Shown here: positions 1,288 through 18,226 of the stretch, one piece after another
How the letters are laid out: each line of letters opens with the position of its first letter
Numbering within the stretch: position 1 is the first letter of the stretch
Assembly: GCA_001661245.1 (NCBI GenBank)
Contig: KV454018.1
Span: 1 to 64,000, forward strand
Reading direction: 5' to 3'
Length of the DNA: 64,000 bases
Source of the DNA: Pachysolen tannophilus NRRL Y-2460
Taxonomy: Eukaryota
Made by a program: the position numbers and the translations under genes
The notes under the pieces: generated by a model
Told to the model about the DNA's origin: nothing
Databases searched by the model: none
The model's input: the letters and a program-made list of their open reading frames with translations, nothing else

Positions 1288-2148
1288 TCATTCCACAAAT
1301 CTGGCTTTAGCTTTCTCTTTTAAGGCCTTACATACTTCGTCGAACTTGAAAACTTTTGTAACAACGAAATTGAGAATTGGCATCGGTAGTAATCCCAAAA
1401 AATACAGCGTCGTTGCCCCAGCACCTCTGTAAATTTGACCAGACCCAGTACCATTCAAAATGTCATTAACAACCTTCGCAGCATATTTTTTTGAGTCCAT
1501 CCTTTTCTGATCACCTAAAATTTGTAGTGAGTTATTAGTGGCATCACAATAATAACGCGATGATTCCGGAAGAGATTGGAATTTTTCGAAAATTTCAGTA
1601 TCAACAGCTCCTGTGGAAAAATGTAGAACCCTGACATCAAATGGTCTCATCTCTAAAGTTAATATCTTACAATAATGTTTAAGAGCTGCTTTTGATGCCC
1701 CGTAAATGGACCCCCATGGTAAAGGAACGTCAGCAGCAACTGAACCTGTAAATGCAACACAGCCCTTGGAATTAATCAATAACGGAGAAAATTCTTTAGT
1801 CATATTAACGGCAGCAAAAAAGTTCACTTCAAAACAAGATCTCATATCTTTATTAGCAATCTCAATCGCCGGACTCGTACAGCCAATTCCTGCATTGTTA
1901 AACAAAATGTCCAACTTACCATTCGTCTTACTAGCAATCAACTCTCTAACCCTGGAAACCTCCTGCGCATTTGTAACATCTAATTGAATTATCTCAATTC
2001 CATACTGCTCCAAATCAGCTAACCTATCCATACGCCTTGCACAGGCATATACTTGGATGCCACGAGAAGCTAACTCTATTGATAAGTCCTTACCAATACC
2101 TGATGATGCTCCTGTTACCAAGGCATATCTCTTTTCAACTGCTACCAT
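1288..2148 (-). CDS. Short-chain dehydrogenase/reductase, Ayr1-like (1-acyl-DHAP reductase family)
   Basis: ATG at 2148 (MVAVEKRYALVTGASSGIG); TGxxxGIG, NNAG and YGASK catalytic motifs; VYACARR and GKLDILFNNAG typical of Ayr1-like SDRs. Confidence 0.85.
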   Translation of the reverse strand: MVAVEKRYALVTGASSGIGKDLSIELASRGIQVYACARRMDRLADLEQYGIEIIQLDVTNAQEVSRVRELIASKTNGKLDILFNNAGIGCTSPAIEIANKDMRSCFEVNFFAAVNMTKEFSPLLINSKGCVAFTGSVAADVPLPWGSIYGASKAALKHYCKILTLEMRPFDVRVLHFSTGAVDTEIFEKFQSLPESSRYYCDATNNSLQILGDQKRMDSKKYAAKVVNDILNGTGSGQIYRGAGATTLYFLGLLPMPILNFVVTKVFKFDEVCKALKEKAKARFVE

Positions 2149-2879
2149 ATTAACTACAAATATTACTACTGGAAATAAATTTACAAAAAAATTAAACTTA
2201 CTCAAGTATTCACCAGCTATTAGTCCGTAATTTATGTATCCAATAATTCCCTTATTTCCTGCTGATTTGTAAGCGCAATAATATATTACTTATTGTATAC
2301 ACTCCATCCGCATTTAATTTCGTACTCTTCACACTATTTACTTCCTGCTGGTATTTCTGCATCAAATACTTCTTCATTTAGATCAAAGATCAAAATTTAG
2401 ATGACTATATAAATTTTTTGAAAAGAAGTAAGGAGCTAATGTTTTAAGCGAAAATATTTACTGAACTTTAATTTGAATTTTGTAATATACTTTTGATTAT
2501 TTATATACAGAAAATTCAAAATTAATGTACTTTAAAGGTATCCCCGAATTTGTTTGGAAATTTTTCATTTACATTAATTTCTTATTGCTTTGAAAGTAAG
2601 ATGTAGATACTTCCGTATGTCGAAACCTCTAAATCAAATGATTCATAGATCGCATTTTTCAATTTCGAAATGCAAATCAAATGGAAATCTCACATATTCT
2701 GATATTTTTCTATTTAGTTGGTTGTTTCAAAGAATATTTATATTTCGAAGATTTGTAATTTACATTTGACATTATTGTGTCCACTTACTATGGTATACCT
2801 TAAAGCAAACAATTTTTATTTGTAGAAATTAATAGAAAAAAACCAAAAATTAAACAAAAAAAAAGCAATTCAAATTTAC

Positions 2880-4931
2880 TTAGCTATCTCTTTCAGTCTC
2901 TTCTTCTTCCTCATTATCTTCTAGATATGATTTTTTTCCCACCAAGTCTAAAAGCATTCTTGCCAAAGTTTTTCGAGATTCCATTAAAGGCCATATAATG
3001 GTAAAAGTGAATGTCACAAACAACCAAATTATTATGACAGCAACAACAAATGTAAGAAATCCTTTTGAAAACACATATGGAGCTGCTGATAGTGGAACTG
3101 GAATAATAATAGAGATAATTAAAGCTGTTACTGAACTCAAAATAATGTATTTTTTAAACTGCTTCTGTAAATACTGGTGATCAATATGAGAATCATCAAC
3201 AGGTAGATCTGATTCAGATGATTCTTCTGAATCTTTTGCTTGGTATTCAATTTCATTATTTTTTACATTGCCTTCAATCTCCTTACCTGAAGTGATAGGG
3301 GTTGGCTCTGCTTCATTGTAATAAATTTCACTAGCCTCAGCTCCATTAGAATCTGAAAGGATTGTTCTGTTCCGAGTTTTGTTGAAATCAAAATTTGCTG
3401 GTTTTATCAAAGAAATTGTTATTGATAAGACTCCACCCAACACAATAGCACATACATTACCTGTGAAGGAAACCCATTCATCTGATAAATTTGAAAGAGT
3501 TATCGAGCCTAAATATTTATAGCACATCACAAGCCAAGCAACTAAAGCTAAAATCATTCCTAAGATTGATCCTGCGATCGCTCCCGTCTTGTTCAAGTTA
3601 TTCCAAGTAAAAGTCAAAGCTATTGGAAACACCCCGGAGGCCGTTGATACTCCTAAAAAGTTGAATAACCATCCCATAGAAATTCCACCCGCGTGAAATG
3701 CAGAAGCTAAAGCAAAACTGAAAAGAGCCCAAAAAAAGACAAAATATTTGGCTGAGGTAACAACTTCTTCAGGTGAAGCTGATTTTCTAATATATTTCTT
3801 ATAAACATCATAGGATAACAATGTTGATGCAGCAATTAGCTCACCGCTGAAAGATGAAGTCACAGATAAAAATACCATAATAATTATAAGCACAGTACCT
3901 GCTTTTCCTAAAACATAACCAGCAGTAGCAACTGCTGCTAAGCCTGCTGTAACTTCGTCTGATGATAAACTTGGAAAGTCTGAATATACCGAAAGAGCTC
4001 TAGCACCTAATCCCAACGTTGTTCCCATAGCAAAAGGGATCACAAACCAACAAATACATGCCGTGAAATAAGCAGATGATGTTCGCAATGGATTTGATGC
4101 AATTGCTCTGGACCAGTAAGCCTGATCACAATTGACCAATCCAAATCCCGTAATAATTGATTGTATAGAAAATATACCACCTCCACTGGATCTAAAAGTA
4201 AGGTAAGAGCCATGGTAGTTGTTATCAACAGGCTCTAGTTGTGAAAGAAGTTCAACCATTCTGCCTGGTGACCCAATTTTATCATCTATCCCACTAGCAA
4301 AAATTGTGAAAACAAATATAATTAACATAATTAATAGAACAAATGTATGTGTAGCATCAGAAATAAAAGTTGATCTGAGCCCACCGAAATAAACATAAAT
4401 TGCAGTGGATAAAGGAATTAATAACAAAGAAGCATAAACATTCATACCAGTAGCTGCTGAGACAACGGCACTTCCTCCCAATAAAATACAAGAACTAACA
4501 ATTGCATTACAAACTAGTCCACACCAAAGAAATGATAGATGACCAGCGGTTCCAAATCTAAAATATGCCATTTCAGGAAATGTAGTTACCAAGTTGGCAT
4601 TGGATTTTACCTTAGCAGCTATTATACTGAAGACAGAAACTTGAATCAACCCTCCAACTGCATACCACCATCCACCAGAAATTCCTAAATTATAACTTTC
4701 TGTAGCACTTTGTAATAATGTTAAAGACCATGTCCAACTAGAAACAATTGACACTACCATCAAACCAAATGGAATGTTTCTACTAGCTGCAGAAAATTCA
4801 TCTGCTTTATTAGTGTTAAGCTTGGAAAATCTATTTTGAAAAAACGTGAAAATGTTTATCAAGAATGCAAAAAAAGCACCCATCCCAATTATAATGGCAT
4901 ATCCAGCGCCTTGGGGTAAATTTGGTTCCAT
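2880..4931 (-). CDS. DUR3-like sodium:solute symporter (urea/polyamine transporter family)
   Basis: Likely ATG at 4931 (MEPNLPQGAGYAIIIG); motifs VSSWTW, YFGGLRSTFISD, DQAYWSRAIA and SSFSGELIAASTLLSYDVYK; many TM segments. Confidence 0.9.
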   Translation of the reverse strand: MEPNLPQGAGYAIIIGMGAFFAFLINIFTFFQNRFSKLNTNKADEFSAASRNIPFGLMVVSIVSSWTWSLTLLQSATESYNLGISGGWWYAVGGLIQVSVFSIIAAKVKSNANLVTTFPEMAYFRFGTAGHLSFLWCGLVCNAIVSSCILLGGSAVVSAATGMNVYASLLLIPLSTAIYVYFGGLRSTFISDATHTFVLLIMLIIFVFTIFASGIDDKIGSPGRMVELLSQLEPVDNNYHGSYLTFRSSGGGIFSIQSIITGFGLVNCDQAYWSRAIASNPLRTSSAYFTACICWFVIPFAMGTTLGLGARALSVYSDFPSLSSDEVTAGLAAVATAGYVLGKAGTVLIIIMVFLSVTSSFSGELIAASTLLSYDVYKKYIRKSASPEEVVTSAKYFVFFWALFSFALASAFHAGGISMGWLFNFLGVSTASGVFPIALTFTWNNLNKTGAIAGSILGMILALVAWLVMCYKYLGSITLSNLSDEWVSFTGNVCAIVLGGVLSITISLIKPANFDFNKTRNRTILSDSNGAEASEIYYNEAEPTPITSGKEIEGNVKNNEIEYQAKDSEESSESDLPVDDSHIDHQYLQKQFKKYIILSSVTALIISIIIPVPLSAAPYVFSKGFLTFVVAVIIIWLFVTFTFTIIWPLMESRKTLARMLLDLVGKKSYLEDNEEEEETERDS

Positions 4932-5450
4932 TTTTCTTTTCTTTTTATTTTTTTTTCCGTTTTTCAGGTTAGAGAATCTTCCGAAAAATACCTTCATTCA
5001 AGAGAAAGCGACATATTTAAATAATCATGTTAAAGCTGAGTTCGACAAGAAAGTAAATTAAGGCTTCTAAATACTAGTTTCCATGTGACATTCATTATTA
5101 TAGCTTTGACATTCATTTTTTTCTAATCCATAACTAAGATGTAACTGTGTACCTTTTCTCAAGGTCTAGTAATTAAAAAAAAAAGTATGGCTTTTTCAAA
5201 ATATGCATAATTATGCATACGCATGGTGAATAAGAAATTATGGCATCTTCAGTTAATATCAATACTGGATTACGATGAAGTAATAGTTATTTATTTCTGA
5301 AAAAAAAATTTCATTGGAATATAATCGTACTATTTTACAGCTCTCTTACCTTGGCCTAATAATATAGCACAATTGTAATATATAAATGAAACCTTGTACC
5401 TTTTATTGGCAAAAAAAATCTCACGGTAAAAATTGTAAAACTCTGCGATA

Positions 5451-6869
5451 ATGGTTGGTAAGACGACAAATAATTGGGCTTTCATTGAATCTGAAGTGTC
5501 AAGATTGGGATTAATTAAGACACAACCGATTCCAGCTCCTAAAGATCCAAATAGTGAGATTGTGACTTTCAATGGTAGCGATGTTATTGATGAAATCGAA
5601 AACTTCAGAAAAACTTTTATACCAGAACTTGATGTAGATGAAGTTGATAAAAAGTACAATTTAAGAGAATTCAAAGAAGCTGATCCTTCAACATCTAAAA
5701 TTGAACCAATTTCTTTACAAGCAATTGACTTGAGTAAGTACATTGAAGGTGCTGAAGGTTTGCAATCAAGAAAGGATTTAGCAGCTGAACTTGAAAAATC
5801 AATTTCAACTTACGGTTTCTTCAATTTGATCAATATCGGTTACCCTCTAGAGGAATTAAATAAGTTGAGATCTATAGCACAATCGTTGTTAGAGTTGCCA
5901 AATGAAGAAAAGCTCAAATATTTAGCCGGTGCTACAGAGAGAACATTAGAAAATAAGAAAGTCTCGTTAGGTGGAGAAAGAGGACTGGGTTTCAAGCCAA
6001 AAGGTTATTGGACAATGCAAAATAAAGTTCGAGATTCTATAGAACATTACAATTTTCGTGATATGTGTCAGGATAATTATTTCTTTGACAAGAACAGAAA
6101 ATATCCTGAAATAGCAAAGGCTCATCTACCAGAAGTAGCTGCTTATTTTAGATATTTACATTTCAACGTCTTGAGAAAATTGCTCAATCTATGTGATTTG
6201 ATTTTGGAGTTGCCGGAGGGGTATTTATGGGAGAATTATTTCAAGGTTTACAAAGATGACTTGTATAATTCTGGTTCTGGATTTGGTCGTTTTATGCATT
6301 ACCTTGGCATGAGCTCTGAGGAAGAAAAAAAAACTAATAACAATTGGTTAAGAGGGCACTCAGATGGTACTGCCTTCACTTTCATTACATCTCAGCCAAT
6401 ATTGTCGTTGCAAATCAGAGATTATTATACTGGAGAATGGAGATATGTAGGACATAGGAAAAACTCATTGATTGTTAATATTGGTGATTCTATGGAATTC
6501 TTAACGGGAGGTTACTTCAAATCTTCAATTCATAGAGTTGTAGCACCGCCAGAAGATCAAAGAAAATTCAGAAGATTAGTTTTAATTTATTTCTGCAACT
6601 GCGCTCTTTCAACAATAATCGATCCCGAAGAAATAAACTCACCAAAGTTAAATCGTTTAGGTTACAAAAAGCCTGCTTCATGGGAAAAAATTACTTCATC
6701 TAGATGGGATGAAGAAAAAGGAAGACTTTTCGGTGATAAAGATTCTAATGACGTTTCTGGAGATGAGCCTAAAGCAGTTTTATTATTTGGCAGACTACAC
6801 GAGAGATGGCACCAAAATGACAATGGCAAGCCTCCTCACATCATCGAACAAGAAGCAACCAGAGCATGA
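5451..6869 (+). CDS. 2-oxoglutarate/Fe(II)-dependent dioxygenase (DIOX_N plus 2OG-FeII_Oxy, IPNS-like fold)
   Basis: IDLS...YGFFNLIN N-terminal signature; HSD iron ligands (LRGHSDG), LQIR, IVNIGDSMEFLTGG and SSIHRV distal His. Confidence 0.9.
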   Translation: MVGKTTNNWAFIESEVSRLGLIKTQPIPAPKDPNSEIVTFNGSDVIDEIENFRKTFIPELDVDEVDKKYNLREFKEADPSTSKIEPISLQAIDLSKYIEGAEGLQSRKDLAAELEKSISTYGFFNLINIGYPLEELNKLRSIAQSLLELPNEEKLKYLAGATERTLENKKVSLGGERGLGFKPKGYWTMQNKVRDSIEHYNFRDMCQDNYFFDKNRKYPEIAKAHLPEVAAYFRYLHFNVLRKLLNLCDLILELPEGYLWENYFKVYKDDLYNSGSGFGRFMHYLGMSSEEEKKTNNNWLRGHSDGTAFTFITSQPILSLQIRDYYTGEWRYVGHRKNSLIVNIGDSMEFLTGGYFKSSIHRVVAPPEDQRKFRRLVLIYFCNCALSTIIDPEEINSPKLNRLGYKKPASWEKITSSRWDEEKGRLFGDKDSNDVSGDEPKAVLLFGRLHERWHQNDNGKPPHIIEQEATRA

Positions 6870-7135
6870 AATGTTTTATGCTCTTCATTTTAAATCTAAT
6901 GTTCCCTTTTATTTTCTTTCATCGTCAAATTAGTTAAAATAAATATTATGTACCTACGTTTAAGTGAATAAATATATGAAACTATCACCTAATTTTTGTA
7001 TTTCATTTGATCCTAATCTAAAACACATCATATATAGCATACATAAAAAAGTCTTAATCAAAAAAACTTATAAGTTGAAAATAAAAAATGCTAAATGCTA
7101 AATGCTAAATTCATCCAATAATCATCAAATTATAA

Positions 7136-9349
7136 TTATTGAAGAAATTGTTGAATGTCTTCATCATCCAATGCATAATTTCCATCAAAGTTCAATATTC
7201 CGTCCATATTACTAAGGGCAGAAAAAAAATCTTTGTCATATTTCATATCCATTAGAGATGTATTTCTATCTGTATTCATTATATTCAAGCCTCCCATCAA
7301 AAATTTAGTAGGAACTGAATTAACGGTAGAAAAATCTGTAGGATTACAGAAATCCATAGATGGGACACATAAAGCTTCATCCCAGTCAAGAGGATCACCA
7401 TCATCATTATGGAATTTCTTAAATACTTTTGCTGTTTTATGTATGTCAATTTGCTTAAAGCTAATCTCTAAATTGTTTAGTTCATCATAAAAATGCCTTG
7501 CTGATATTGATCCGACAGAACTCAAGTATTTCAATACTTGAATTGATCTGCTAATCCGACTAGTAATCTCCATCTTAGTCCTTTCACTGAATTTTGTAAC
7601 TGTAGCAGACATTAAAATGATTACAGTGGAACTGAAACAATATTGTGCATCAAACCCCCCATATTTAGCAATTTTATCATTGTCATACAATGAGTTGATA
7701 GCAGAGTTTATCGAATAGGCCGATCTGATACAAGCTTCAGATATAGCCAAAGATGTTGGTGAAGGTACAAAATTGACATCAGATATAGCATTAATAAACA
7801 CATAAAGAAACAACGACCTTGTACTCAATATTATTAATTGGTTGTAATGATTATGGAAAGAGTATATATTTCTCAAAATTTTTGAAGTACTTTTATTCTT
7901 GTAATATTGAAGTCGTAAAGTTGGATCTAAATTGTTATAACAATCTCTCAATTCGGTTAACACTTCATGAACATTCTCAACAAACGAAGTATCTCTATTA
8001 TTACTTTGTTCATTGATACTATAAATTTTCTTTAAAATTAAAGAACTGATTTTTGCGATTTGGATTTGACCCAACATATATTTAGATTCTGGAAATTCTT
8101 TGTATTCACTTTCAGTAAAGAATTTTTCTGATGGCAACTCAGTATCTATATCTTCTACGGAAATCCCGTAAGGATGCCCTAACTTTGATGCAATCATTCT
8201 ATCAAATATGAAAACTGTCCACCAAAGCCTTCTCCTTCTTTCCTTTTCCTTTACATCTAAATCTGAGTTATTTGATAAAGATGCTTTACGATGTAAGCCT
8301 AAAAGCATTGAAATTCTTATTGCTAAACTGGCATACATAAATGCAGAATTGACACGGTTTAGAGAATAAGAATAGTATCCGATTTGAGTTAAAGCTTCAA
8401 CATATTCGACGGTCGGCTGTTCAAATTGATCTTGTAATAGGGAAATTGCATATTTGAAATAATCAATACCGGGAGAGCGACCATCAGGCATTATCTCATT
8501 TTTATATAATTCCCCTAAAGCCATCATTGCAAAAAATTGAACCATTTGAATTCTTGAAACTTCATTATTTGGAGTGTACAGTGTTCCGGGTTCATTATTC
8601 TCATATATCTTATCAATAAGTAAATTAAATGAGTCGAACATCACGAAATAATATTCAATTCCAACATAATTTTCAGCAACATAAGCCAACTCTTTTGCAG
8701 TTTTCTTATCTGGTAATATGCAATAGGTATTTATAAATGAATTATTCCAAACCAAGTCTTCATCGTCGTAATGTAAGAACTGATGAAGCTTATTGAAATT
8801 ATATTGATTAAAAGTTTCAGAACCTTTATGAGTAAGAACATATTGTTGTAATTTAATGTTGAATTTTGAACATGCTGAATCACCCATATGAATAAATCGT
8901 GATTTCTGAGTAGTGTAAGGAAGCTTTTGATCAATAACTAAAGGATTACCGTCAGGATCAGTTTTCAAAGGAACAGCATTAATAGCTTCATTTTGCTTTT
9001 TAATTATCCGAGTTCTCAAAGAAGGTGATTCCGCGATATAGTTAACATTCTGGACCAATTTTTCTTCATTCAAAGCTAATTTACTTCTCAAATCTCTTAA
9101 TTCTAATTCCAAATTCTCAACATAATCTTTTTTTATTGTAACATATTTTTCTTTTTTAACAACCGAATAAAAACATTCATAAGCTAGGTTTGAATTTTTA
9201 CACTTATCACATGGATGTTGAAAATTGCATTTGATTTTTTTCTTGTGACAACGTTCACAAGCTTTTCTTGACCTAACCCTACGGTTTCTATTCAAACCGT
9301 TATTGTATTTTAAAGCGTCGGCTTTAATAAGTCCTTCCTCCTTATTCAT
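7136..9349 (-). CDS. Zn(II)2Cys6 fungal transcription factor with Fungal_trans domain
   Basis: ACERCHKKKIKC...PCDKC...C binuclear cluster; LGLHR...ERRRRLWWTVFIFDR middle homology region. Confidence 0.95.
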   Translation of the reverse strand: MNKEEGLIKADALKYNNGLNRNRRVRSRKACERCHKKKIKCNFQHPCDKCKNSNLAYECFYSVVKKEKYVTIKKDYVENLELELRDLRSKLALNEEKLVQNVNYIAESPSLRTRIIKKQNEAINAVPLKTDPDGNPLVIDQKLPYTTQKSRFIHMGDSACSKFNIKLQQYVLTHKGSETFNQYNFNKLHQFLHYDDEDLVWNNSFINTYCILPDKKTAKELAYVAENYVGIEYYFVMFDSFNLLIDKIYENNEPGTLYTPNNEVSRIQMVQFFAMMALGELYKNEIMPDGRSPGIDYFKYAISLLQDQFEQPTVEYVEALTQIGYYSYSLNRVNSAFMYASLAIRISMLLGLHRKASLSNNSDLDVKEKERRRRLWWTVFIFDRMIASKLGHPYGISVEDIDTELPSEKFFTESEYKEFPESKYMLGQIQIAKISSLILKKIYSINEQSNNRDTSFVENVHEVLTELRDCYNNLDPTLRLQYYKNKSTSKILRNIYSFHNHYNQLIILSTRSLFLYVFINAISDVNFVPSPTSLAISEACIRSAYSINSAINSLYDNDKIAKYGGFDAQYCFSSTVIILMSATVTKFSERTKMEITSRISRSIQVLKYLSSVGSISARHFYDELNNLEISFKQIDIHKTAKVFKKFHNDDGDPLDWDEALCVPSMDFCNPTDFSTVNSVPTKFLMGGLNIMNTDRNTSLMDMKYDKDFFSALSNMDGILNFDGNYALDDEDIQQFLQ

Positions 9350-9874
9350 CTATCTGTTGATTTATCTTTTAATCTTGTCTCTCTTAACTATATTGCAGTC
9401 TTTTTTTCTTTTCGTATTTTTGGCAGTTTTCAATTATAAATTATATTATTGATAGATAGCATCGATACATATCTAAAAAGAATTTACGATAATAAAAACA
9501 AAAGGTAGTGGAGAATCAGTCCACTTAGATAAAGAAACTGCGTTAAGATAAAGAATTAAAAGACATAAATAATTCTTGGTGATATTTTTGCATTGTTGGC
9601 GATAAAGATTTCTTACCGCCGACTGGTTGTTATTCAATTTTTGAAAAACTTTCGCTAATTGGAGTCGCAATTGAATTTCCGGCGATAATATGTACCAATC
9701 ACCGATCTTCTCATGTCGAAGACTATCAATCCTGATATGAAAGATTTAGGTGCATAGGATAGCTTATCTAAAATCTGTAATGCATTGTACTTTTATATAA
9801 ATACCCATCCGATGAAGATGTGTAAAATGGTTTCAAGAGAGAACAACGAGACAAGTAAATCGTTAAAGATTAAA

Positions 9875-11386
9875 ATGAGTTTAAAAGAAGAACACCAAGT
9901 TCAAGAAATAGGAGAAGCAAAGGGGGATCCAACAGTACAAGTGGATTCATTCCCTGATGAATCGAGTTTAGATGGAATCAAGTTAGAAAATATGAGTCCT
10001 GAGGACTTGAAAAATTTTCAAATTGATCCTGAAGAAGAAGCTAAACTTACAAGAAAGTTGGATCGTTATTTGATTCCAATGTTTGCTGTTATGTATTTTC
10101 TTTCATCACTTGATAGATCAAATATTGGTAATGCTTATACTTCTGGTATGAAAGAAGATTTGGCATTAACTGCTACTCAATATTCAACTGCAGTTTCAGT
10201 ATTCTACTCTACTTATTTAGTTTCTGAACTACCTGCAACTTTATTTATGAAAAAATTAAAACCACATTATTACTTAAGTTTCTTAGTTTTCTCTTGGTCA
10301 ATGGTTTGTTTATTTAGTGGATTTGTTAAAAGTTATGGAAGCTTAATAGCAACTAGAGTTTTGTTAGGAACTTTTGAAGGTGGATTTTTTCCAGCTATAG
10401 TCACATATACAACAATGACTTGGAAATCAGAAGAACAAGCAAAAAGAATTTCATATTTTTTCGGTTCAGCCTCATTGTCTGGAGCATTTGGAGGTTTAAT
10501 TGCAACTGGATTAACAAAAGTTACTAGTTCTACTTTTGAAGGCTGGCGTTGGTTATACGTTATTGAAGGAATCATCTCTGTATTTGCTTCTCTTTGGTTA
10601 TTTTTTGGTTTACCTGATTCACCAGCAGATTTAAAATTTTTATCACCAAGAGAGAAAATGTTAATGAAAGTAAGAGCAAAGCAACGTGAACTTTATCTTG
10701 GTGATTTGGACCATATTAACTGGCAGGAAGTTAAATCAGCTGTTTTCGATATCAGAACTCACATCAGTTACTGTATTCAATTTTGTCAAGATACAATCTT
10801 ATATGGTTTCAGTACATTTTTACCATCCATTTTAAAATCTGGTTTAGGTTATGATAGTATGCAAGCTCAATATCTTTCAGTTCCAGTTTATTTACTAGCA
10901 GGATTAGTATTTTTAATATCAGCATGGATCAGTGATAGATATAAGGTTAGAGGTATTGTTTTCTTTTGTTACAACTTTGTTGGAGTTGCAGGTTTTATCA
11001 TCTTATTAGCTTGTGACAATGATGCTGTCAAATATTTCGCTTGTTATTTGATTACATTTTCATTATATACAGGTACTGGTTTGAACATTGCTTGGACTAC
11101 AAACAACTTTTCAGGCTTCCGTCGTAATACTCTGATTGGTTTAAATCAAACTTTTGGAAATCTTTCAGGTGCAATTGTTGGTCAGGTTTATAGGTCTTCA
11201 CCATACGTTTTAGGTAATTCTTTCTCATTAGGATGTATTTGCGTTTCAATGATTTTAACTGTTTCTCAACTTTTTTATTTGAGACATTTAAATCGTGAAA
11301 AAGAAGCTATCTTAAGAGGTGAAAAAGTCGATACCAAGAAAGACAGATTGGGTGACAGAGCCTTAGAATTTAAATACTGTTATTAA
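9875..11386 (+). CDS. MFS transporter, anion:cation symporter (Dal5/Tna1-like) family
   Basis: Likely ATG at 9875; KLDRYLIP, LDRSNIGNA, RVLLGTFEGGFFP, GWRWLYVIEG and C-terminal F.Y.Y motifs. Confidence 0.93.
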   Translation: MSLKEEHQVQEIGEAKGDPTVQVDSFPDESSLDGIKLENMSPEDLKNFQIDPEEEAKLTRKLDRYLIPMFAVMYFLSSLDRSNIGNAYTSGMKEDLALTATQYSTAVSVFYSTYLVSELPATLFMKKLKPHYYLSFLVFSWSMVCLFSGFVKSYGSLIATRVLLGTFEGGFFPAIVTYTTMTWKSEEQAKRISYFFGSASLSGAFGGLIATGLTKVTSSTFEGWRWLYVIEGIISVFASLWLFFGLPDSPADLKFLSPREKMLMKVRAKQRELYLGDLDHINWQEVKSAVFDIRTHISYCIQFCQDTILYGFSTFLPSILKSGLGYDSMQAQYLSVPVYLLAGLVFLISAWISDRYKVRGIVFFCYNFVGVAGFIILLACDNDAVKYFACYLITFSLYTGTGLNIAWTTNNFSGFRRNTLIGLNQTFGNLSGAIVGQVYRSSPYVLGNSFSLGCICVSMILTVSQLFYLRHLNREKEAILRGEKVDTKKDRLGDRALEFKYCY

Positions 11387-11771
11387 TTTTGTTTTATTAT
11401 CTTATACTTTTTGAAAAAAAAATTATTGTTATCAAAAAAAAAACTTCGTAGTAGAAACTTTGAACATCTGCATAGTACATGAGAATTAAAGCCGTAATTG
11501 TTTTCCTGGTATTAAAGGTTTGATTATGTACTAATTTTGAATTATGCATGCAAGTGTATTCTCATCAGTCATATTCTTTTATCTAACGAAAAACGATATA
11601 AACGATAACATTAATTTCGTATTTATATATACTCTATTATCTATAAATCTGTATATAATATTTATTGTATGTGACTATTGCATTTATGGTGGGTTAATGG
11701 GTAATTTATAATTCAAGTTACAATTATTACGTTAAAAGTATTATTAAATTAATAGATAATTTTTTTTACTA

Positions 11772-12596
11772 ATGAAAATAGATACTGTTGCTAAGCAATT
11801 TCGTTTGAGTTGCCGTTCTGAAGTTCATAATACACAAACTGCTGGACAAGCAGCTGGGTATGCTCAAGCAAATTTGGTTATCTTACCTACTGAAGTAGTA
11901 AATGATTTCAAAGATTTTTGTTTTAGAAACCCTGTTCCTTGTCCATTATTGGCTTATACCGAAGGTAATCCTAATAAAGTTAATAACATTAAAGTGATCG
12001 ATGATGATTATGGTAATTTTGACATAAGAACAGATTTACCAAAATATAATATCTATGAAAATGGAAAACTTATTAAGACTAAATCGAACATCTTGGAGGA
12101 ATGGGATTCTGATCGATATGTTGGATTTCTCATAGGTTGTTCATTTTCATTTGAGTATGAACTAGCTAAAAATGGTTTAACCCCGAAACATATTTTATTA
12201 AACACAAATGTATCCATTTATAAGACCACACTTCTGTTAAACCCAGCAGGAGTATTTGTTAATTGTAAATATGTTGTAAGCATGAGACCTTATAAAGAAA
12301 AAGATTTAGATAAAGTGAGAGAGATAACAAGACTGTTTAAAGTAACTCATGGGGAACCAATAGACTGGGGGTTTGATGCTGTCAAAAGATTAGGTATTAA
12401 TGATTTAAACTCTCCCGATTATGGAAGTTTTGTAGAAATGGAACCTGATGAAATACCTGTGTTTTGGGCGTGTGGTGTTACACCTCAATTAGCAATAGAA
12501 ACTGTAGGCGAAAAAATTGATGGAATAGTTATGACTCATACTCCAGGACATATGTTGATCTTGGATATAACAGATGAAGAAGTTGTTAATTTATAG
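11772..12596 (+). CDS. DUF1445 / D-glutamate cyclase-like putative hydro-lyase
   Basis: QANLVILP, RNPVPCPLL, DIRTDLPKY, FLIGCSFSFE, VVSMRP, HGEPI, PVFWACGVTPQ and THTPGHML family motifs. Confidence 0.9.
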   Translation: MKIDTVAKQFRLSCRSEVHNTQTAGQAAGYAQANLVILPTEVVNDFKDFCFRNPVPCPLLAYTEGNPNKVNNIKVIDDDYGNFDIRTDLPKYNIYENGKLIKTKSNILEEWDSDRYVGFLIGCSFSFEYELAKNGLTPKHILLNTNVSIYKTTLLLNPAGVFVNCKYVVSMRPYKEKDLDKVREITRLFKVTHGEPIDWGFDAVKRLGINDLNSPDYGSFVEMEPDEIPVFWACGVTPQLAIETVGEKIDGIVMTHTPGHMLILDITDEEVVNL

Positions 12597-12628: not shown

Positions 12629-12968
12629 NNNNNNNNNNNNNNNNNNNNNNNNNNNNNNNNNNNNNNNNNNNNNNNNNNNNNNNNNNNNNNNNNNNNNNNN
12701 NNNNNNNNNNNNNNNNNNNNNNNNNNNNNNNNNNNNNNNNNNNNNNNNNNNNNNNNNNNNNNNNNNNNNNNNNNNNNNNNNNNNNNNNNNNNNNNNNNNN
12801 NNNNNNNNNNNNNNNNNNNNNNNNNNNNNNNNNNNNNNNNNNNNNNNNNNNNNNNNNNNNNNNNNNNNNNNNNNNNNNNNNNNNNNNNNNNNNNNNNNNN
12901 NNNNNNNNNNNNNNNNNNNNNNNNNNNNNNNNNNNNNNNNNNNNNNNNNNNNNNNNNNNNNNNNNNNN
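12629..12968. other. Assembly gap (N run)
   Basis: Ns; the right flank 12969-~13050 repeats the 3' end of the DUF1445 gene with small indels. Confidence 0.99.
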
Positions 12969-13661
12969 CCAGGACATATGTTGTATCTTGGATATAACAG
13001 ATGAAGAAGTTGTTAATTTATTAGAAAGAAAAAATAAATTTTTTTNTTTTTTTTTTTTCCATTTTTCAATTTTTCTTCTTTTAGGGCAATAGTAGTTTCA
13101 TAATCTTATTGTACAGTTCTTATCTATTAAGATTTTCGAATTAGAGGTTTAGATTGGTTGATTTAATTATTTCCCCTTTTGTATTTTTGATATATACACA
13201 CGACCAAGTTGTTGATGTATATTTATACACCGACGTATATATACACTGATAAGAGTTAAATTGAATTTTTTTTCTTTTTAAGAGTTTTTCATCTTCAGCG
13301 AGGAAGTTCCTAAAGCTAATTAAAAAATCAAATTTTTTTTTAATAATAAATTTAATCAATGGGCTAGATGCTGTTTTATCCATCAATAGCCAAAATAAAC
13401 CAAAACTATTTTAGGTTGTCTATGCGGGATGTTTGCATAACTATATTTACCTGAGCATTCCAAAATTTACTATTGGCGCTGCTATCTGTTTATCTGAATT
13501 TCTTTTCCTAATTAGGAATCTCCATCATTAGTACCCATATCAGTATAATAAATCAAAAATGATATATAAACGAGAATGTTCAGTAGTTCATTCATTGATT
13601 TTATCTCAATCATTAGTCTTCCTTTAGATCGCTTATTGCTGATATTATTTTTTTCAAGACA

Positions 13662-15764
13662 ATGGAACGTTTACAACAAATTGCTTCTCAAGCCACAGGT
13701 TCTTTGAGTCCACCTCCAAGACCTGATCATCCTTTGGATCCATTATCTTCTGCTGAAATAAAAGCTGCAACTGATGTTATTAAAAACAAATATGCTGGTC
13801 ATAAAATTAACTTCAATACGGTAACTTTAAGAGAACCAACAAAGAAGGCTTTCTTGGAGTGGAAAGATAAGAATGGACCACTTCCTCCACGTTTAGCATA
13901 TTTTGTCATATTAGAAGACGGTGTTAGTGGTGTTCAAGAAGGTGTTATTGATTTAGGTTCATTGGCTATCACTAGCTTGAAAAACATTGTTGGTGTTCAG
14001 CCTATCTTAACCGTAGAGGACTTATGTTCTACTGAATCGGTTATCAGAAATGATCCTAAAGTCATTGAGCAATGTGTTCTTTCTGGTGTTCCAGCTAATG
14101 AAATGCACAACATTTATTGTGATCCATGGACTATTGGTTACGATGAACGTTGGGGTTCTTCAAAGAGATTACAACAGGCTTTGATGTATTATAGATCAAA
14201 CGAAGATGACTCTCAATATTCCCATCCTTTGGATTTCTGTCCAATTGTCGATATGGAGAAGCAAGAAGTCATCTATATTGATATTCCTAATCGTCGTCGT
14301 AAAGTTAGCAAACATAAACATGCCAATTTCTACCCAAAGGACGTTAAGGAAAAATATGGTAAGATGAGAGATGATGCAAAACCAATTAACATCACTCAAC
14401 CAGAAGGCGTCTCTTTTAAAATGGATGGCAATGTCATGAACTGGTCAAACTTTAAGTTCCACATTGGTTTCAATTATAGAGAAGGTATTGTCTTATCTGA
14501 TATTTCATACAATGATCATGGTAAAGAGAGACCAATTTTCCATAGAATCTCTTTGTCAGAAATGATTGTTCCATATGGCTCACCAGATTTCCCTCATCAA
14601 AGAAAACATGCCTTAGATATTGGTGAATATGGTGCAGGTTACATGACTAATCCGTTATCTTTAGGATGTGATTGTAAAGGTGTTATTCACTACTTAAATG
14701 CATGCTTTAGTGATAGGAGCGGTGACCCAATAACTATTAAGAATGCAGTTTGTATTCATGAAGAGGATGACGGATTATTATACAAACATTCAGATTTCAG
14801 AGATTCTTTTTCTACTTCCATTGTAACTAGATCTACAAAGTTGGTAATTTCTCAAGTTTTCACTGCAGCTAATTATGAATACTGTATCTATTGGAATTTT
14901 ATTCAAGATGGTACTATTAAATTAGATATTAGGTTAACGGGTATCTTAAACACTTATGTTTTAGGTGATGATGAAGATGCTGGTCCATGGGGAACTCAAG
15001 TTTACCCTAATGTTAATGCTCATAATCACCAACATATGTTTTCATTACGTATACATCCAAGATTAGATGGTGATCAAGGTAATTCAGCGGCTATGGTAGA
15101 TGCTCAACCTTCACCATTCCCATTGGGATCACCTGAAAATATGTATGGTAATGGATTTTACGCAAAGAAAACTACATTCAAGACTGTCAGTGATTCTTTA
15201 ACTAACTATGAATCATCTACTGGAAGATCATGGGATATTTTCAATCCTAATGTTATTCACCCATACTCTGGAAAACCTTCATCTTATAAATTGGTTTCTA
15301 CCATGTGTCCACCACTCTTAGCTAAACCAGGTTCTTTAGTTTACAAAAGAGCACCTTGGGCCAGCAAAACTATTCAAGTTATTCCATATCAAGAAGATAG
15401 ACTTTATCCTTCTGGGGTACATGTACCACAGTGGTCTGGTGATGGTATCAGAGGTATGAGAGAATGGATTGGAGATGGATCTGAAAAAATTGAAAATACT
15501 GATATTTTGATGTTTCATACATTCGGAATCACACATTTCCCAGCTCCAGAAGATTTCCCTGTTATGCCTGTAGAACCAATGTCATTATTGTTGAGACCAA
15601 GAAACTTTTTCCTAGAGAATCCTACATTAGATATTGTTCCATCTCATGCAACGACAACTAGTGAGGCAGTAAAAGCTGGTAATGCTCAACATAAAGCATC
15701 AGGAGATGGTGTTTCAAGATTGGCCTTTGAGAGTAGTCCAAGCTCATGTTGTAGCAGAAAATAA
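13662..15764 (+). CDS. AMO1: Peroxisomal copper amine oxidase (TPQ-dependent)
   Basis: HPLDPL N-terminal motif; TAANYEY TPQ consensus; HNHQH and THFP copper ligands; PTS2-like RLQQIASQA resembling the Ogataea amine oxidase N-terminus. Confidence 0.95.
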   Translation: MERLQQIASQATGSLSPPPRPDHPLDPLSSAEIKAATDVIKNKYAGHKINFNTVTLREPTKKAFLEWKDKNGPLPPRLAYFVILEDGVSGVQEGVIDLGSLAITSLKNIVGVQPILTVEDLCSTESVIRNDPKVIEQCVLSGVPANEMHNIYCDPWTIGYDERWGSSKRLQQALMYYRSNEDDSQYSHPLDFCPIVDMEKQEVIYIDIPNRRRKVSKHKHANFYPKDVKEKYGKMRDDAKPINITQPEGVSFKMDGNVMNWSNFKFHIGFNYREGIVLSDISYNDHGKERPIFHRISLSEMIVPYGSPDFPHQRKHALDIGEYGAGYMTNPLSLGCDCKGVIHYLNACFSDRSGDPITIKNAVCIHEEDDGLLYKHSDFRDSFSTSIVTRSTKLVISQVFTAANYEYCIYWNFIQDGTIKLDIRLTGILNTYVLGDDEDAGPWGTQVYPNVNAHNHQHMFSLRIHPRLDGDQGNSAAMVDAQPSPFPLGSPENMYGNGFYAKKTTFKTVSDSLTNYESSTGRSWDIFNPNVIHPYSGKPSSYKLVSTMCPPLLAKPGSLVYKRAPWASKTIQVIPYQEDRLYPSGVHVPQWSGDGIRGMREWIGDGSEKIENTDILMFHTFGITHFPAPEDFPVMPVEPMSLLLRPRNFFLENPTLDIVPSHATTTSEAVKAGNAQHKASGDGVSRLAFESSPSSCCSRK

Positions 15765-16027
15765 ATAGATTAAATACGTTTGATTTGTGATTAGCTTAAT
15801 TTTAATTCTTATTTTTATTTTTTATTTTTTTTTTTTTTGTGATATAAAATCTCTTGAATGAGTAATGTTTATTTGTTTATTTTCCTTCCTTCTAGTTTTA
15901 TATATATTTTTTTTTATCTTTTTTTTTCAACCATTCTATAGCTTTGGAATAAAATCATAATATTCGTTTTAAAAAAAAGGACAAAAAGGAAATAGTTTAA
16001 TAAAAAAAAAAATAAAAGAAGGTTTAT

Positions 16028-16945
16028 TTAGATTTTTTCAATAAATTGATCAACGTAGTACCAATAATTCTCTTGTACTATTGTATCATTATGAAACCCA
16101 TTTGGAAATTCCTTAAATGTTTTGTCTAGAGACTTTGACAACTTAAACAATTCCTTCATATGAATAGGTGGAACAATTTCATCTTTCAGTCCACTTAAAA
16201 ATAATATTGGTATATTGGATGGGATTTCAGGAATCAAGTTTTCAGAATTCCATTTTTCATGACATAAAAATGAAACATATTTTAAATATGGGAACAAATA
16301 AGGTATTAGTTTTGTTATACTTAAAAATGTATTTTCTAATATGATTCCACCTATTAAATTTGGATGAGAAGATGCAATATAAATAGCAACAGCTCCTCCT
16401 AATGAACGTCCATGTAAAATTATTTTTGAATTTGATATTTGATTATCTTTCATTATCCATTCACAAACAGATTCAGCATCTATTTTTAAACCTGCTTCTG
16501 AAGGAGTACCAGTAGATTTACCATATCCTCTATAAGAATATATAATAACATTACATTTCATATTAACATAAAATAATTGAGCAATTGGTAAAGAATGACC
16601 CATATTACCAGCATTTGGGCATAACATTAAAACTGTCTTATTAGAATAATCAATTTTACTTGAATCATTTCTTATTACAAACATCTTTATAGTTTCATTA
16701 TCTCGAGTCACAACATCTATATGTTCATAGTTATCCATGCCATAAACGTCCGGAGTATCAACTTTCCCATGACCATCAGCAATATAAGCTGGATAAACTA
16801 GCTTTGATTGGAACCAATATAAGCTACCTAGTCCCAAGACTGCAGCAGAACCTAATAAAGTAGACACGGTTTTAGTTAATTTAAAAAATGTATTTATAAT
16901 TGAAGACCGACTATCAGAAACACTAGAAAAAGAGGTAAAATCCAT
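16028..16945 (-). CDS. BEM46/ABHD13-family alpha/beta hydrolase (YNL320W-like)
   Basis: PNAGNMG, SYRGYGKSTG.PSE.GL, GRSLGG nucleophile, DEIVP and HNDT catalytic residues. Confidence 0.9.
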   Translation of the reverse strand: MDFTSFSSVSDSRSSIINTFFKLTKTVSTLLGSAAVLGLGSLYWFQSKLVYPAYIADGHGKVDTPDVYGMDNYEHIDVVTRDNETIKMFVIRNDSSKIDYSNKTVLMLCPNAGNMGHSLPIAQLFYVNMKCNVIIYSYRGYGKSTGTPSEAGLKIDAESVCEWIMKDNQISNSKIILHGRSLGGAVAIYIASSHPNLIGGIILENTFLSITKLIPYLFPYLKYVSFLCHEKWNSENLIPEIPSNIPILFLSGLKDEIVPPIHMKELFKLSKSLDKTFKEFPNGFHNDTIVQENYWYYVDQFIEKI

Positions 16946-17228
16946 AATCTTAATACCCTATCAAATTATTCAATAAATTGTTTAAAATTAATATTTATCG
17001 AACTTTGTATTTTTAAAGGGGAATTTTTCTTTTTTTATTAAAAGAATACACAAAATGCAAGTCAAAAAAGTATTTAATAGAAAACATTACTACACGACGT
17101 ATCACATTCATTTATAATTTAATTCATTAATAATAATAATATATATATACATAAAAGATATACCTATTAAGGTTCACCGGGAGGTTTCTATTGATGCTGG
17201 TTTCTATCTTAAGATACTAATTTTAAAC

Positions 17229-17708
17229 CTAGTACCAAGTTTTTTGCTCTTTTTCTTTTCTTTCTAATCTTCTCTTATATTTATTACCTCTAGCTTCAAT
17301 AATAATTTCATCAGCTCTTGCCACAGCTTCAGCAATTTTCTGTTTACGAGATTCATAAGTTCTTTCCCATTTATGTCCCTTAGGGTTAACTGCACCTTTC
17401 AAAGGTTTCAGATTATTATATCTTTCTTCATAAAAAACTTTTCCATTATTTAATTTAGGTAACAAATCTGCAACCCCAAATTTGTACGCCAACTTAAAGA
17501 GATCAGATTGCCTTCTCATAGAATATATCGGATCATGAATAGCATTTGTAACAGGGTGCTTATTTGGTAAAAATGGATTTGCATCATCTGCCGTCGTTAG
17601 TGTAGTTTCTGTAGCATATTGTTTAAAAGGTATAGGTGGGTATTGCGTGAAAAAATCAACTAATTTCTTAGGCAATTTCTTGAATGCCTGTTGTGCACTA
17701 AGTGACAT
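17229..17708 (-). CDS. MRPL25: Mitochondrial ribosomal protein mL59
   Basis: LP.KL..FF..YPP, NPFLPNKHP, YSMRRQSDL.K.A and PKGHKWE motifs. Confidence 0.85.
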   Translation of the reverse strand: MSLSAQQAFKKLPKKLVDFFTQYPPIPFKQYATETTLTTADDANPFLPNKHPVTNAIHDPIYSMRRQSDLFKLAYKFGVADLLPKLNNGKVFYEERYNNLKPLKGAVNPKGHKWERTYESRKQKIAEAVARADEIIIEARGNKYKRRLERKEKEQKTWY

Positions 17709-17959
17709 GATAATTATTCAACTATTGATGCTCTCAAATATAAATATATTGAATCACTAAATAGAAAAAAAAAGAAAGAAAAAGAGTTATCAAATCCTAT
17801 AAAACTATCGTTGAATTTCCTAGATTTTCCTCCCATAATTAATTATGTCCTGAAAAAAAAAAAAAAAGTAGAAAAAAAAAAAATTCAACTAAAAATGGCA
17901 GATTTTTTAATTTCTTTAACGTGTCACTAATAAATAGTAGTGCTCAGTATTTCATTTAT

Positions 17960-18008
17960 CCTAATTAGGAATTTTTTTAATTTTTTCGGTTTTTTTCGCT
18001 GTGACTCA
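17960..18008 (+). promoter_or_regulatory. ARG8 promoter: Mcm1-type CArG palindrome and Gcn4 site
   Basis: CCTAATTAGG at 17960-17969 and TGACTCA at 18002-18008, upstream of an arginine biosynthesis gene. Confidence 0.6.
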
Positions 18009-18226
18009 ATAATACCATATAAAATGAGGTGAAAAAAAGTTAAGAAAAACTATGGGCTACAGCTAGATAACTAGTAAAGATAGTTAAACAATACAATACA
18101 AATTTTTAGTTATTTTAGTTATTTTAATTGAGTTTGAAATAATTTTGATAATTTTTCATTTATATTGTTTTAAATTATCATTTTGTATAATTTTTTTTTT
18201 TTCTTTCTCAAAACTAAAAGATTGTT

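Follow-up and report, generated by a model that had tools for sequence, protein, structure and literature searches.

The window, which is the whole 64-kb stretch of DNA that was analysed, carries three intact open reading frames between positions 7136 and 12596 when translated with table 12. A Zn(2)Cys(6) binuclear-cluster transcription factor of 737 aa is encoded on the minus strand (7136..9349). On the plus strand follow an MFS permease, probably of the DAL5/TNA1 type (anion:cation symporter family) and 524 aa long when counted from its first ATG (9812..11386), and a stand-alone DUF1445 protein of 274 aa (11772..12596; also UPF0317 or PF07286, 'D-glutamate cyclase family'). The spacer of 385 bp between the last two genes (11387..11771) holds no ORF that reaches 80 aa and presumably contains the DUF1445 promoter. 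These results confirmed the factor/permease/DUF1445 trio of the original prediction, including the position of the 274-aa gene behind the permease gene. The divergent promoter region between factor and permease was read from the sequence as 9350..9874. Its predicted length of about 525 bp holds if the permease starts at Met22 (9875) and falls to 462 bp if the first in-frame ATG (9812) is used; Met22 is the likely start, as it agrees better with the N-terminus length in homologues.

The factor and permease genes contain one CTG codon each and the DUF1445 gene two. Leucine was found at neither DUF1445 position in any of 17 aligned homologues, which is compatible with CTG being read as serine. 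The DUF1445 stop codon occupies 12594-12596, and a gap of Ns (12630-12968) begins 33 nt later. Beyond the gap lies a second, indel-bearing copy of the last ~70 nt of the gene. The reading before the gap is the version that matches homologues through the C-terminus, and it showed no differences over 11500-12594 in 10,713-bp contigs from three runs of two studies, one of which may itself be the source.

The permease was recognized by MFS_1 (150.7 bits against a Pfam cut-off of 33.4; E 6.6e-44). Its best NCBIfam match was TIGR00893 2A0114, at 207 bits and under the cut-off of 395; the anion:cation symporter family carries the number TC 2.A.1.14. Yeast permeases that have a DUF1445 gene on the same contig share 59-67% identity with it. 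Among the matches listed, permease and DUF1445 genes share a contig in 12 other cases. Four are Lachancea pairs recognized by neighbouring locus tags, namely L. meyersii (0C00386g/0C00430g), L. lanzarotensis (S01e00276g/00320g), L. mirantina (0D00210g/00254g) and L. dasiensis (0B11562g/11518g). The tag numbers imply that one feature lies between the two genes in Lachancea. The other eight cases are further contigs of 4,529 to 128,093 bp, recognized by identical lengths in the DUF1445 and MFS matches. Linkage is not universal in yeasts, as the best MFS match (ZYRO0G00352g) and the DUF1445 gene (ZYRO0C00308p) of Z. rouxii are on different chromosomes, and no MFS gene was co-located with DUF1445 in Yamadazyma, Ogataea, Metschnikowia or Zygotorulaspora among the 120 matches listed. 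Given the 12 shared contigs, we regard the permease and DUF1445 genes as a conserved unit whose pairing is not due to chance.

Phylogenetic analysis placed the permease inside a clade of 30 rows (FastTree local support 99), together with eight DUF1445-linked permeases and a cluster (P0133) that includes Zygosaccharomyces bailii ZYBA0S13-00518g and Saccharomyces cerevisiae EO220_1840. Identity to the Region B / Z. bailii permease is 60% over 500 columns. EO220_1840 is gene E of Region B, which wine and bioethanol strains of S. cerevisiae acquired from Z. bailii, and it stands 481 bp from, and divergent to, the oxoprolinase gene D (PMC8082247). Of 44 Brazilian bioethanol strains, 41 carried Region B, compared with 365 of 976 others (PMC8082247). 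The Region B permease has a 5-oxoproline enzyme as its divergent partner, and its cluster carries two transcription factors of the Zn-cluster type. The partner there is an ATP-dependent oxoprolinase, whereas the yeast locus has DUF1445; Region B also differs in its flocculin gene and its mobility, and in the literature searched its function is described from annotation only.

The DUF1445 protein covers all positions (1-143 of 143) of the PF07286 D-Glu_cyclase profile (189.9 bits, cut-off 25; E 2.6e-56) and is a single-domain protein in the Pfam scan. Against NCBIfam NF003969, 'putative hydro-lyase', its score of 281.6 bits fell short of the 324 required of an equivalog; judged by the NCBI threshold, the protein is a relative rather than a member of this bacterial group. 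It matched PDB entries 2pif (PSPTO_5379) and 3db9 (Atu3911) at E 9e-51 and 38-40% identity. The predicted model (pLDDT 91.4) superimposed on 2pif_A with a Z score of 31.0 and an rmsd of 2.3 over 249 aligned residues (Foldseek E 6.2e-27), so that the fold is shared over the whole length. Both are structural-genomics entries titled UPF0317 only and therefore add no function. In an alignment of 119 fungal-side and 80 bacterial sequences, 47 columns were at least 95% conserved in both sets, and the yeast protein retains all 47. Among these are Q32, N34, N53, Y92, C123, S124, R172, H193, C234, T237 and H256.

The DUF1445 family is large, with more than 7,800 protein matches at an E value of 0.001 and at least 601 stretches matched in genomes of prokaryotes. 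The original prediction placed stand-alone members in bacteria, which is true and incomplete, as they are widespread in fungi as well. It knew of none in S. cerevisiae; no S. cerevisiae protein is named among the best 120 of the more than 7,800 matches, which agrees with this view and does not prove it. A horizontal origin had also been raised as a question for DUF1445 phylogeny. The fungal proteins form one branch separate from the bacterial ones, and this, with their wide distribution in fungi, makes vertical fungal descent the simpler reading and does not point to a recent transfer from bacteria.

The only family member with measured activity is the mammalian D-glutamate cyclase (DGLUCY, C14orf159, 9030617O03Rik; EC 4.2.1.48), which converts D-glutamate to 5-oxo-D-proline and has no glutamate racemase activity. 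DGLUCY is a mitochondrial protein of two domains, DUF1445 and DUF4392, and the paper describing it does not assign the activity to either half. The yeast protein belongs to the same Pfam family by its DUF1445 domain and has no second domain, and DUF4392 (PF14336) was not matched, fused or adjacent, among the 30 ORFs scanned in the 64-kb window. No assayed stand-alone DUF1445 protein was found in the literature searched.

The original prediction described bacterial DUF1445 genes as lying near 5-oxoprolinase genes. We surveyed 80 bacterial loci with flanks of roughly 6 kb, and PxpA/B/C 5-oxoprolinase genes were present in 18. A YcsG/PxpT-like NRAMP-fold gene, the 5-oxoproline transporter type, was near DUF1445 in eight loci, a DUF4392 gene in 17, and an adjacent LysR-DUF1445-TRAP DctP arrangement in 13, two of which continue into PxpABC (L002 and L076). 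In nine more, a LysR gene or a distant TRAP gene was the sole partner, and 27 had none of the probed partners in their flanks. A Pfam check of 109 neighbouring ORFs from 28 loci agreed with these counts (Pxp 12, DUF4392 five, LysR with TRAP five, Nramp five, none of these in seven). According to an excerpt of a recent study, 5-oxoproline use requires YcsG/PxpT, and PxpR is the 5-oxoproline sensor (PMC13274462).

The yeast locus resembles pxpR-pxpTABC of Corynebacterium glutamicum and pxpA-ycsG-ycsI-pxpB-pxpC of Bacillus subtilis, in that a regulator diverges from a secondary transporter that is followed by one or more converting enzymes. In the B. subtilis-type operon the DUF1445 gene ycsI adjoins the transporter gene, an arrangement also seen in three of the surveyed loci (L049, L065 and L079). 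The components differ: a Zn2Cys6 regulator stands in the place of GntR or LysR, an MFS transporter, probably of DAL5 type, in that of an NRAMP-fold or TRAP system, and the yeast genes are monocistronic eukaryotic genes. Unlike the pxp loci, the yeast locus has no ATP-dependent 5-oxoprolinase, and none of the LamB_YcsF, CT_C_D, CT_A_B or hydantoinase/oxoprolinase families was found among the 30 scanned ORFs of the window. No D-amino-acid oxidase gene was found among these ORFs either. We read the locus as a eukaryotic variant of the known bacterial loci for pyroglutamate uptake.

We examined both promoters for regulatory motifs. The divergent region contains seven GATAA motifs in 525 bp (window mean 2.3 per 525 bp, 99th percentile 7), and the DUF1445 spacer six in 385 bp (15.6 per kb vs 4.3 per kb in the window). 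This is an enrichment of about 3-fold in both promoters, as in nitrogen-regulated genes. The divergent region also has six CGG triplets (11.4 per kb vs 4.5 per kb in the window) and two copies of CCGNCGA, at 9616 and 9679. This motif occurs four times in the window against 1.2 expected, and 2 of 100 shuffles reached four; the signal is weak. In an excerpt of work on Aspergillus fumigatus, deletion of gprK lowered expression of a DUF1445 gene together with nitrate, ammonium and peptide transporters (PMC5008803). Likewise, the excerpted data for a Schizosaccharomyces pombe klf1 deletion list a DUF1445 gene and a TNA-like MFS gene as both down (PMC3805531).

The position of the Zn2Cys6 factor suggests that it might regulate both neighbours. 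Residues 31-59 form a CX2CX6CX5CX2CX8C motif that fits the Zn(2)Cys(6) pattern CX2CX6CX5-12CX2CX6-8C, and Zn_clus (8.5e-08) and Fungal_trans (3.6e-33), the fungal-specific middle domain, both exceeded their Pfam cut-offs. The original prediction made the factor part of the unit, and its relatives did not support this claim. The nearest are 30-37% identical, all named ones belong to the Pezizomycotina, and all 16 of the best 20 phmmer matches that carry organism names are from these filamentous ascomycetes; none of the relatives could be tied to a DUF1445 or MFS neighbour by contig or tag. A word-based search returned five weak relatives, and a metagenome scan for fungal neighbourhoods of the locus returned one weak locus. 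The functional link may thus join permease and DUF1445 only, with the factor an unrelated neighbour that regulates other genes, as is also suggested by the single CGG and the absence of CCGNCGA in the DUF1445 spacer. Against this stand the divergent regulator-transporter pairs that are usual in fungal and bacterial catabolic units, such as pxpR/pxpT and the LysR/DUF1445 loci above, and the two transcription factors of Region B. Zn2Cys6 factors also evolve fast, so that untraced orthologues are weak evidence. We give an unrelated factor a substantial chance, a little short of even.

On balance, we think it somewhat probable that the locus serves a CTG-clade budding yeast as a small unit for scavenging nitrogen, which combines import of a pyroglutamate-type acid with its conversion by DUF1445. 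Three observations point to 5-oxoproline: the Region B permease clade, the bacterial DUF1445 context and the GATAA-rich promoters. The original prediction named D-glutamate or 5-oxoproline as the permease substrate; it is plausible and partly supported, for a 5-oxoproline-type substrate, by two independent neighbourhood arguments, one from the Region B permease beside a 5-oxoprolinase and one from bacterial DUF1445 beside PxpABC, YcsG/PxpT and TRAP importers. Its further claim, that the stand-alone enzyme interconverts the two compounds, gained no such support. Judged by the neighbours of these relatives, pyroglutamate (5-oxoproline) is the most likely substrate of the permease-DUF1445 pair. 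The permease, as a proton symporter, would import a pyroglutamate-type lactam acid, either D-glutamate or 5-oxoproline, the latter most plausibly in its D form as well, and the adjacent hydro-lyase would convert it in the cytosol. The candidate reaction that we favour is that of EC 4.2.1.48 (5-oxo-D-proline + H2O = D-glutamate, reversible), by which DUF1445 would take the enantiomer that the ATP-dependent 5-oxo-L-prolinase refuses. Enzymes encoded outside the locus would pass the product on to general nitrogen metabolism. Expression would probably be under GATA-factor nitrogen control, with the divergent factor possibly acting as substrate sensor. Ring opening without ATP is thermodynamically unfavourable, which counts against this reading.

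The pair may instead serve a different carboxylate, such as a related lactam or cyclic acid (the six-ring aminoadipate lactam, or a hydantoin or pyrrolidone derivative) or a pyridine acid, for example nicotinate. Relatives of the permease are named 'high-affinity nicotinic acid transporter' or 'allantoate permease family' in databases, the 27 bacterial loci mentioned above show no 5-oxoproline gene in their flanks, and in some loci DUF1445 accompanies other enzymes, including amide enzymes: DUF2848, an amidase and a ureidoglycolate-lyase-like gene in one (L014), an FAD oxidoreductase and a PLP enzyme in another (L052). The permease names, however, are transferred annotations, and the literature searched reports no assayed member of the clade. 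In the 28 Pfam-annotated loci no nicotinate-catabolic gene stood beside DUF1445, and the only recurrent enzyme partners were 5-oxoprolinase subunits and DUF4392. We hold a different carboxylate to be unlikely.

DUF1445 could also be a racemase or epimerase of 5-oxoproline (or a glutamate lactam) that turns the imported D form into 5-oxo-L-proline for an ATP-dependent 5-oxoprolinase of the OXP1 type. C123 (in GCS) and C234 (in ACGVT) are invariant in 199 of 199 sequences, and such a feeder role fits the 18 loci with ATP-dependent, L-specific 5-oxoprolinases. C. glutamicum grows on 5-oxo-L-proline by pxpTABC alone, in an excerpt that does not mention ycsI (PMC13274462), which suggests that DUF1445 is dispensable for the L form. 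The fold differs, however, from known two-cysteine racemases: beyond UPF0317, the best match was the NrpR-like domain 3nek_B (Z 8.6, rmsd 4.2, 168 residues), followed by ferredoxin/PII-like folds at Z 4.3 or less. The mammalian relative, moreover, makes 5-oxo-D-proline without racemase activity. We consider a racemase quite improbable. In a detoxifying role, DUF1445 would cyclise incoming D-glutamate to the inert 5-oxo-D-proline, as happens in mammalian mitochondria, while the MFS protein moves substrate or product. This reading has the thermodynamically favoured direction on its side and is very unlikely: there is little reason to place a dedicated importer beside an enzyme that detoxifies, the DAL5 family is known for its importers, and the GATAA-rich promoters and the excerpted A. 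fumigatus co-regulation fit nutrient use better.

A yeast 5-oxoproline transporter is not known, according to the excerpted text of a 2026 paper (PMC13398684). This locus and Region B point to a specific permease clade as a candidate, and the two-gene yeast unit offers a simple genetic system for finding the substrate of DUF1445/YcsI. We propose tentatively, as a rather unlikely extension of the nitrogen-scavenging reading, that the yeast MFS clade of this permease and that of Region B supplies the missing pyroglutamate permease of fungi, and that stand-alone DUF1445 works on the D branch without ATP, as a hydro-lyase of 5-oxo-D-proline/D-glutamate or as a racemase of 5-oxoproline. Musts and molasses are rich in pyroglutamate. 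Should the permease clade carry it, Region B, which is characteristic of the S. cerevisiae strains used for wine and bioethanol, would gain a function in pyroglutamate use. If the proposal holds for both proteins, yeasts could feed on D-pyroglutamate or D-glutamate shed from bacterial cell walls, by an undescribed eukaryotic route for D-glutamate-derived nitrogen.

The original prediction of a transcription factor, permease and DUF1445 trio at 7136-12596 was borne out, as each gene is an uninterrupted open reading frame at the predicted coordinates under the alternative yeast code. The 737-aa transcription factor (7136-9349, minus strand) carries a Zn(2)Cys(6) cluster and a fungal-specific transcription-factor domain, and the permease (open reading frame at 9812-11386, plus strand) was assigned to MFS_1 by Pfam. 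The third protein (11772-12596, plus strand; 274 aa) matched the whole profile of PF07286 (D-Glu_cyclase, formerly DUF1445) at 2.6e-56. A divergent promoter of approximately 525 bp had also been proposed; this length is correct if the permease starts at Met22 (525 bp) but not if translation starts at the first ATG, which leaves 462 bp. Judging by the N-terminal lengths of homologues, Met22 is the more likely start. CTG codons are scarce in the three genes (1, 1 and 2), and at the two CTG positions of the DUF1445 gene leucine occurred in 0 of 17 aligned homologues, an absence compatible with CTG being read as serine.

An N gap (12630-12968) opens 33 nt past the DUF1445 stop codon. Beyond the gap, within the region 12630-13055, the last ~70 nt of the gene recur in a second copy that is 92% identical and carries single-base indels and an N in a poly-T. 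The pre-gap reading matches homologues up to the last residues and is identical in 10,713-bp contigs from three runs of two studies, one of which is possibly the source. We therefore consider the DUF1445 gene to be whole and the duplicate to be an assembly artefact at the poly-T tract. The contigs of the three runs likewise terminate in the same poly-T, and the region has the appearance of two scaffold ends left unmerged at a homopolymer.

Relatives of the DUF1445 protein, 55-62% identical, were present in many fungi. Among its best 120 matches, 27 were named by organism and all 27 were fungal, including Lachancea, Zygosaccharomyces, Zygotorulaspora, Yamadazyma, Ogataea, Metschnikowia, Aspergillus and Penicillium. 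The top permease matches share genomes and contigs with these DUF1445 matches. Locus tags of the permease and DUF1445 genes are 44 apart in four Lachancea species, which presumably places one annotated feature between them, as we take the tag step to be 22. Eight more contigs, from 4.5 to 128 kb, were size-identical in both match lists. Linkage is not universal: in Z. rouxii the pair is split between chromosomes, and the 120 permease matches listed included no co-located one for several named species. We consider it very likely that the permease and the DUF1445 enzyme work together. Metagenome contigs were also tried as a source of fungal neighbourhoods and were set aside, as the one locus they yielded was weak (37% identity) and lay at the end of its contig.

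Both promoters contain GATAA at roughly three times the density of the window, the divergent promoter holding 7 copies in 525 bp, at the 99th percentile for stretches of this size, and the DUF1445 promoter 6 in 385 bp, although AT-rich spacers raise counts of this kind. No GATAA was present in two nearby spacers, those beside the 2OG-Fe(II) oxygenase gene. Such richness is typical of nitrogen-catabolite-controlled yeast genes. The candidate Zn-cluster word CCGNCGA was considered as a shared site; two copies lie in the divergent promoter and none upstream of DUF1445, the window's count was attained by 2 of 100 shuffles, and this statistically weak word was not accepted as a site. In two expression studies, the DUF1445 gene was within the 20 most down-regulated genes of an A. 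fumigatus gprK mutant, in a list that also held nitrate, ammonium, uridine and oligopeptide transporters (PMC5008803), and it was the sole transcript reduced more than 6-fold upon vegetative klf1 deletion in S. pombe, where a TNA-like MFS gene was one of two other reduced transcripts (PMC3805531).

We infer a possible role for the transcription factor in this unit from its divergent layout with the permease, which is typical of such units. That it is a mere neighbour of the permease-DUF1445 unit is nonetheless a substantial possibility. Its closest relatives are 30-37% identical, and the orthologue search returned 5 weak matches when word-based and 5,957 with phmmer. Sixteen of the best 20 of these 5,957 were named, and all 16 were from filamentous ascomycetes (Pezizomycotina); none of these named relatives had a contig or tag series in common with the DUF1445 or permease matches. 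Relatives this distant are odd for a budding-yeast gene, and no budding-yeast protein was among the named ones of the best 20.

In gene content, the leftmost 16 kb of the window resembles a nitrogen-scavenging region. Other nitrogen or amine genes, any of which may belong to the unit, flank the trio at 1288-6869 and 13662-19658. Genes for a short-chain dehydrogenase (1288-2148, minus strand), a sodium:solute symporter-family protein (2880-4997, minus) and a 2OG-Fe(II) oxygenase (5451-6869, plus) precede it, and those for a copper amine oxidase (13662-15764, plus) and a class-III aminotransferase (18528-19658, plus; the frame begins at profile position 21) follow. An alpha/beta hydrolase gene also lies within the left 16 kb. 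Housekeeping genes make up the remainder of the window, among them those for histidinol dehydrogenase, Cpn60, GAPDH, SAICAR synthetase and NAD synthase. No member of the 5-oxoprolinase, DUF4392 or D-amino-acid oxidase families was seen among the 30 window open reading frames scanned.

In a tree of 120 permeases, the window protein fell within a 30-member clade (local support 99) that includes eight DUF1445-linked permeases. Also in this clade is a cluster of yeast permeases, P0133, 60% identical to the window permease and comprising Z. bailii and Z. parabailii proteins and a protein that recurs across hundreds of contigs from S. cerevisiae, among them strain PE-2, where it is EO220_1840. EO220_1840 is gene E, on the complement strand, of Region B, a cluster of wine and bioethanol S. 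cerevisiae transferred from Z. bailii; the oxoprolinase-family gene D lies 481 bp away on the opposite strand (PMC8082247, Supplementary Table 13). Gene E is the annotated 'nicotinic acid permease', and genes D and E form a divergent pair. Members of a single permease clade thus have a 5-oxoprolinase as partner in one lineage, and DUF1445 in other lineages. Region B may accordingly be a pyroglutamate-utilisation cassette; we found no paper testing it as such.

Prokaryotic genomes were scanned with a fungal DUF1445 alignment, which gave at least 601 matches; the 80 best (39-46% identity) were retained. Pfam annotation covered 109 neighbouring open reading frames at 28 loci (36 were chosen, and the DUF1445 frame was missed by a crude caller in 8). 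All 80 loci were classed by tblastn with probes from the annotated loci, other oxoprolinase types being outside the probe set. PxpA/B/C 5-oxoprolinase genes were present inside ~6-kb flanks at 18 of the 80 loci, a YcsG/PxpT-like NRAMP-fold gene at 8, and a gene for DUF4392, which makes up the remaining half of the mammalian enzyme, at 17. At 13 loci the DUF1445 gene directly adjoined genes for a LysR regulator and a TRAP binding protein, and PxpABC followed in two of them; 9 loci had a LysR gene alone or a distant TRAP gene alone, and 27 had no probed partner. The two extended strings, in a Ferrovibrio MAG (L002) and in Enterovibrio (L076), run LysR, DUF1445, TRAP transporter and PxpA/B/C in the same direction, a complete regulator, enzyme, importer and 5-oxoprolinase set. 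In Secundilactobacillus (2882-7396 of its locus), biotin carboxyl carrier and biotin carboxylase genes lie directly upstream of DUF1445-PxpA-NRAMP. A differing, amide-pathway context was seen in an Agrobacterium MAG (3932-7349), where the flanking genes of DUF1445 are for DUF2848, an amidase and a ureidoglycolate-lyase-like protein rather than for 5-oxoprolinase.

According to PMC13274462, growth of B. subtilis and C. glutamicum on 5-oxoproline needs YcsG/PxpT, and 5-oxoproline is bound by the divergent regulator PxpR. The NRAMP-fold importer is thus tied to 5-oxoproline experimentally, and the TRAP importer via its neighbours only. The importers found beside DUF1445 thus belong to three unrelated types: NRAMP-fold and TRAP in bacteria, and MFS in yeasts. 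We regard another lactam or carboxylate as an unlikely substrate, though one to be kept in mind.

The predicted DUF1445 model (pLDDT 91.4) superposed on 2PIF and 3DB9, two entries from structural genomics (Z 31.0 for 2PIF). Outside UPF0317, the NrpR-like nitrogen-repressor domain 3nek_B stood out (Z 8.6, 168 residues aligned, 11% identity), and the other matches were ferredoxin/PII-like at Z 4.3 or lower; the fold is therefore uninformative about mechanism. Fungal-side and bacterial sequences have 47 columns in common that reach at least 95% conservation on both sides, and all are present in the yeast protein. Two of them are invariant cysteines, which suggested a racemase, but fold searches returned no racemase-like match. 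The only measured activity of the family is that of a mouse two-domain protein, which converts D-glutamate to 5-oxo-D-proline, showed no racemase or oxidase activity, and whose activity is not attributed to either domain (PMC5339696). The label 'D-glutamate cyclase' is therefore hypothetical for the single-domain yeast protein. A racemase feeding an ATP-dependent prolinase appears improbable.

Horizontal origin of the gene had been raised as a question for phylogeny. In a tree of 119 fungal-side proteins (27 named) and 80 bacterial ones (best matches, not a full sample), the fungal side formed one side of a branch (SH-aLRT 99) and the window protein fell within a supported 84-member fungal set; there was no sign of recent bacterial transfer within the tree sampled.

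Our literature searches found no paper on what DUF1445 proteins do in fungi or on a 5-oxoproline permease from yeast, and the yeast transporter is stated to be unknown in a 2026 paper (PMC13398684). We propose that the permease would import a pyroglutamate-type acid and that DUF1445 would convert it, the best guess being a D-specific 5-oxoproline/glutamate interconversion, with the remaining steps performed by enzymes encoded elsewhere. Expression would track nitrogen status and perhaps also the neighbouring transcription factor. D-glutamate detoxification is a very improbable role, and we favour the 5-oxoproline/D-glutamate assignment as a whole, with modest confidence. Among bacterial loci, the yeast transcription factor, permease and DUF1445 trio has its counterpart in LysR-DUF1445-TRAP, and the yeast locus repeats the architecture of bacterial pyroglutamate-uptake loci with non-homologous parts.
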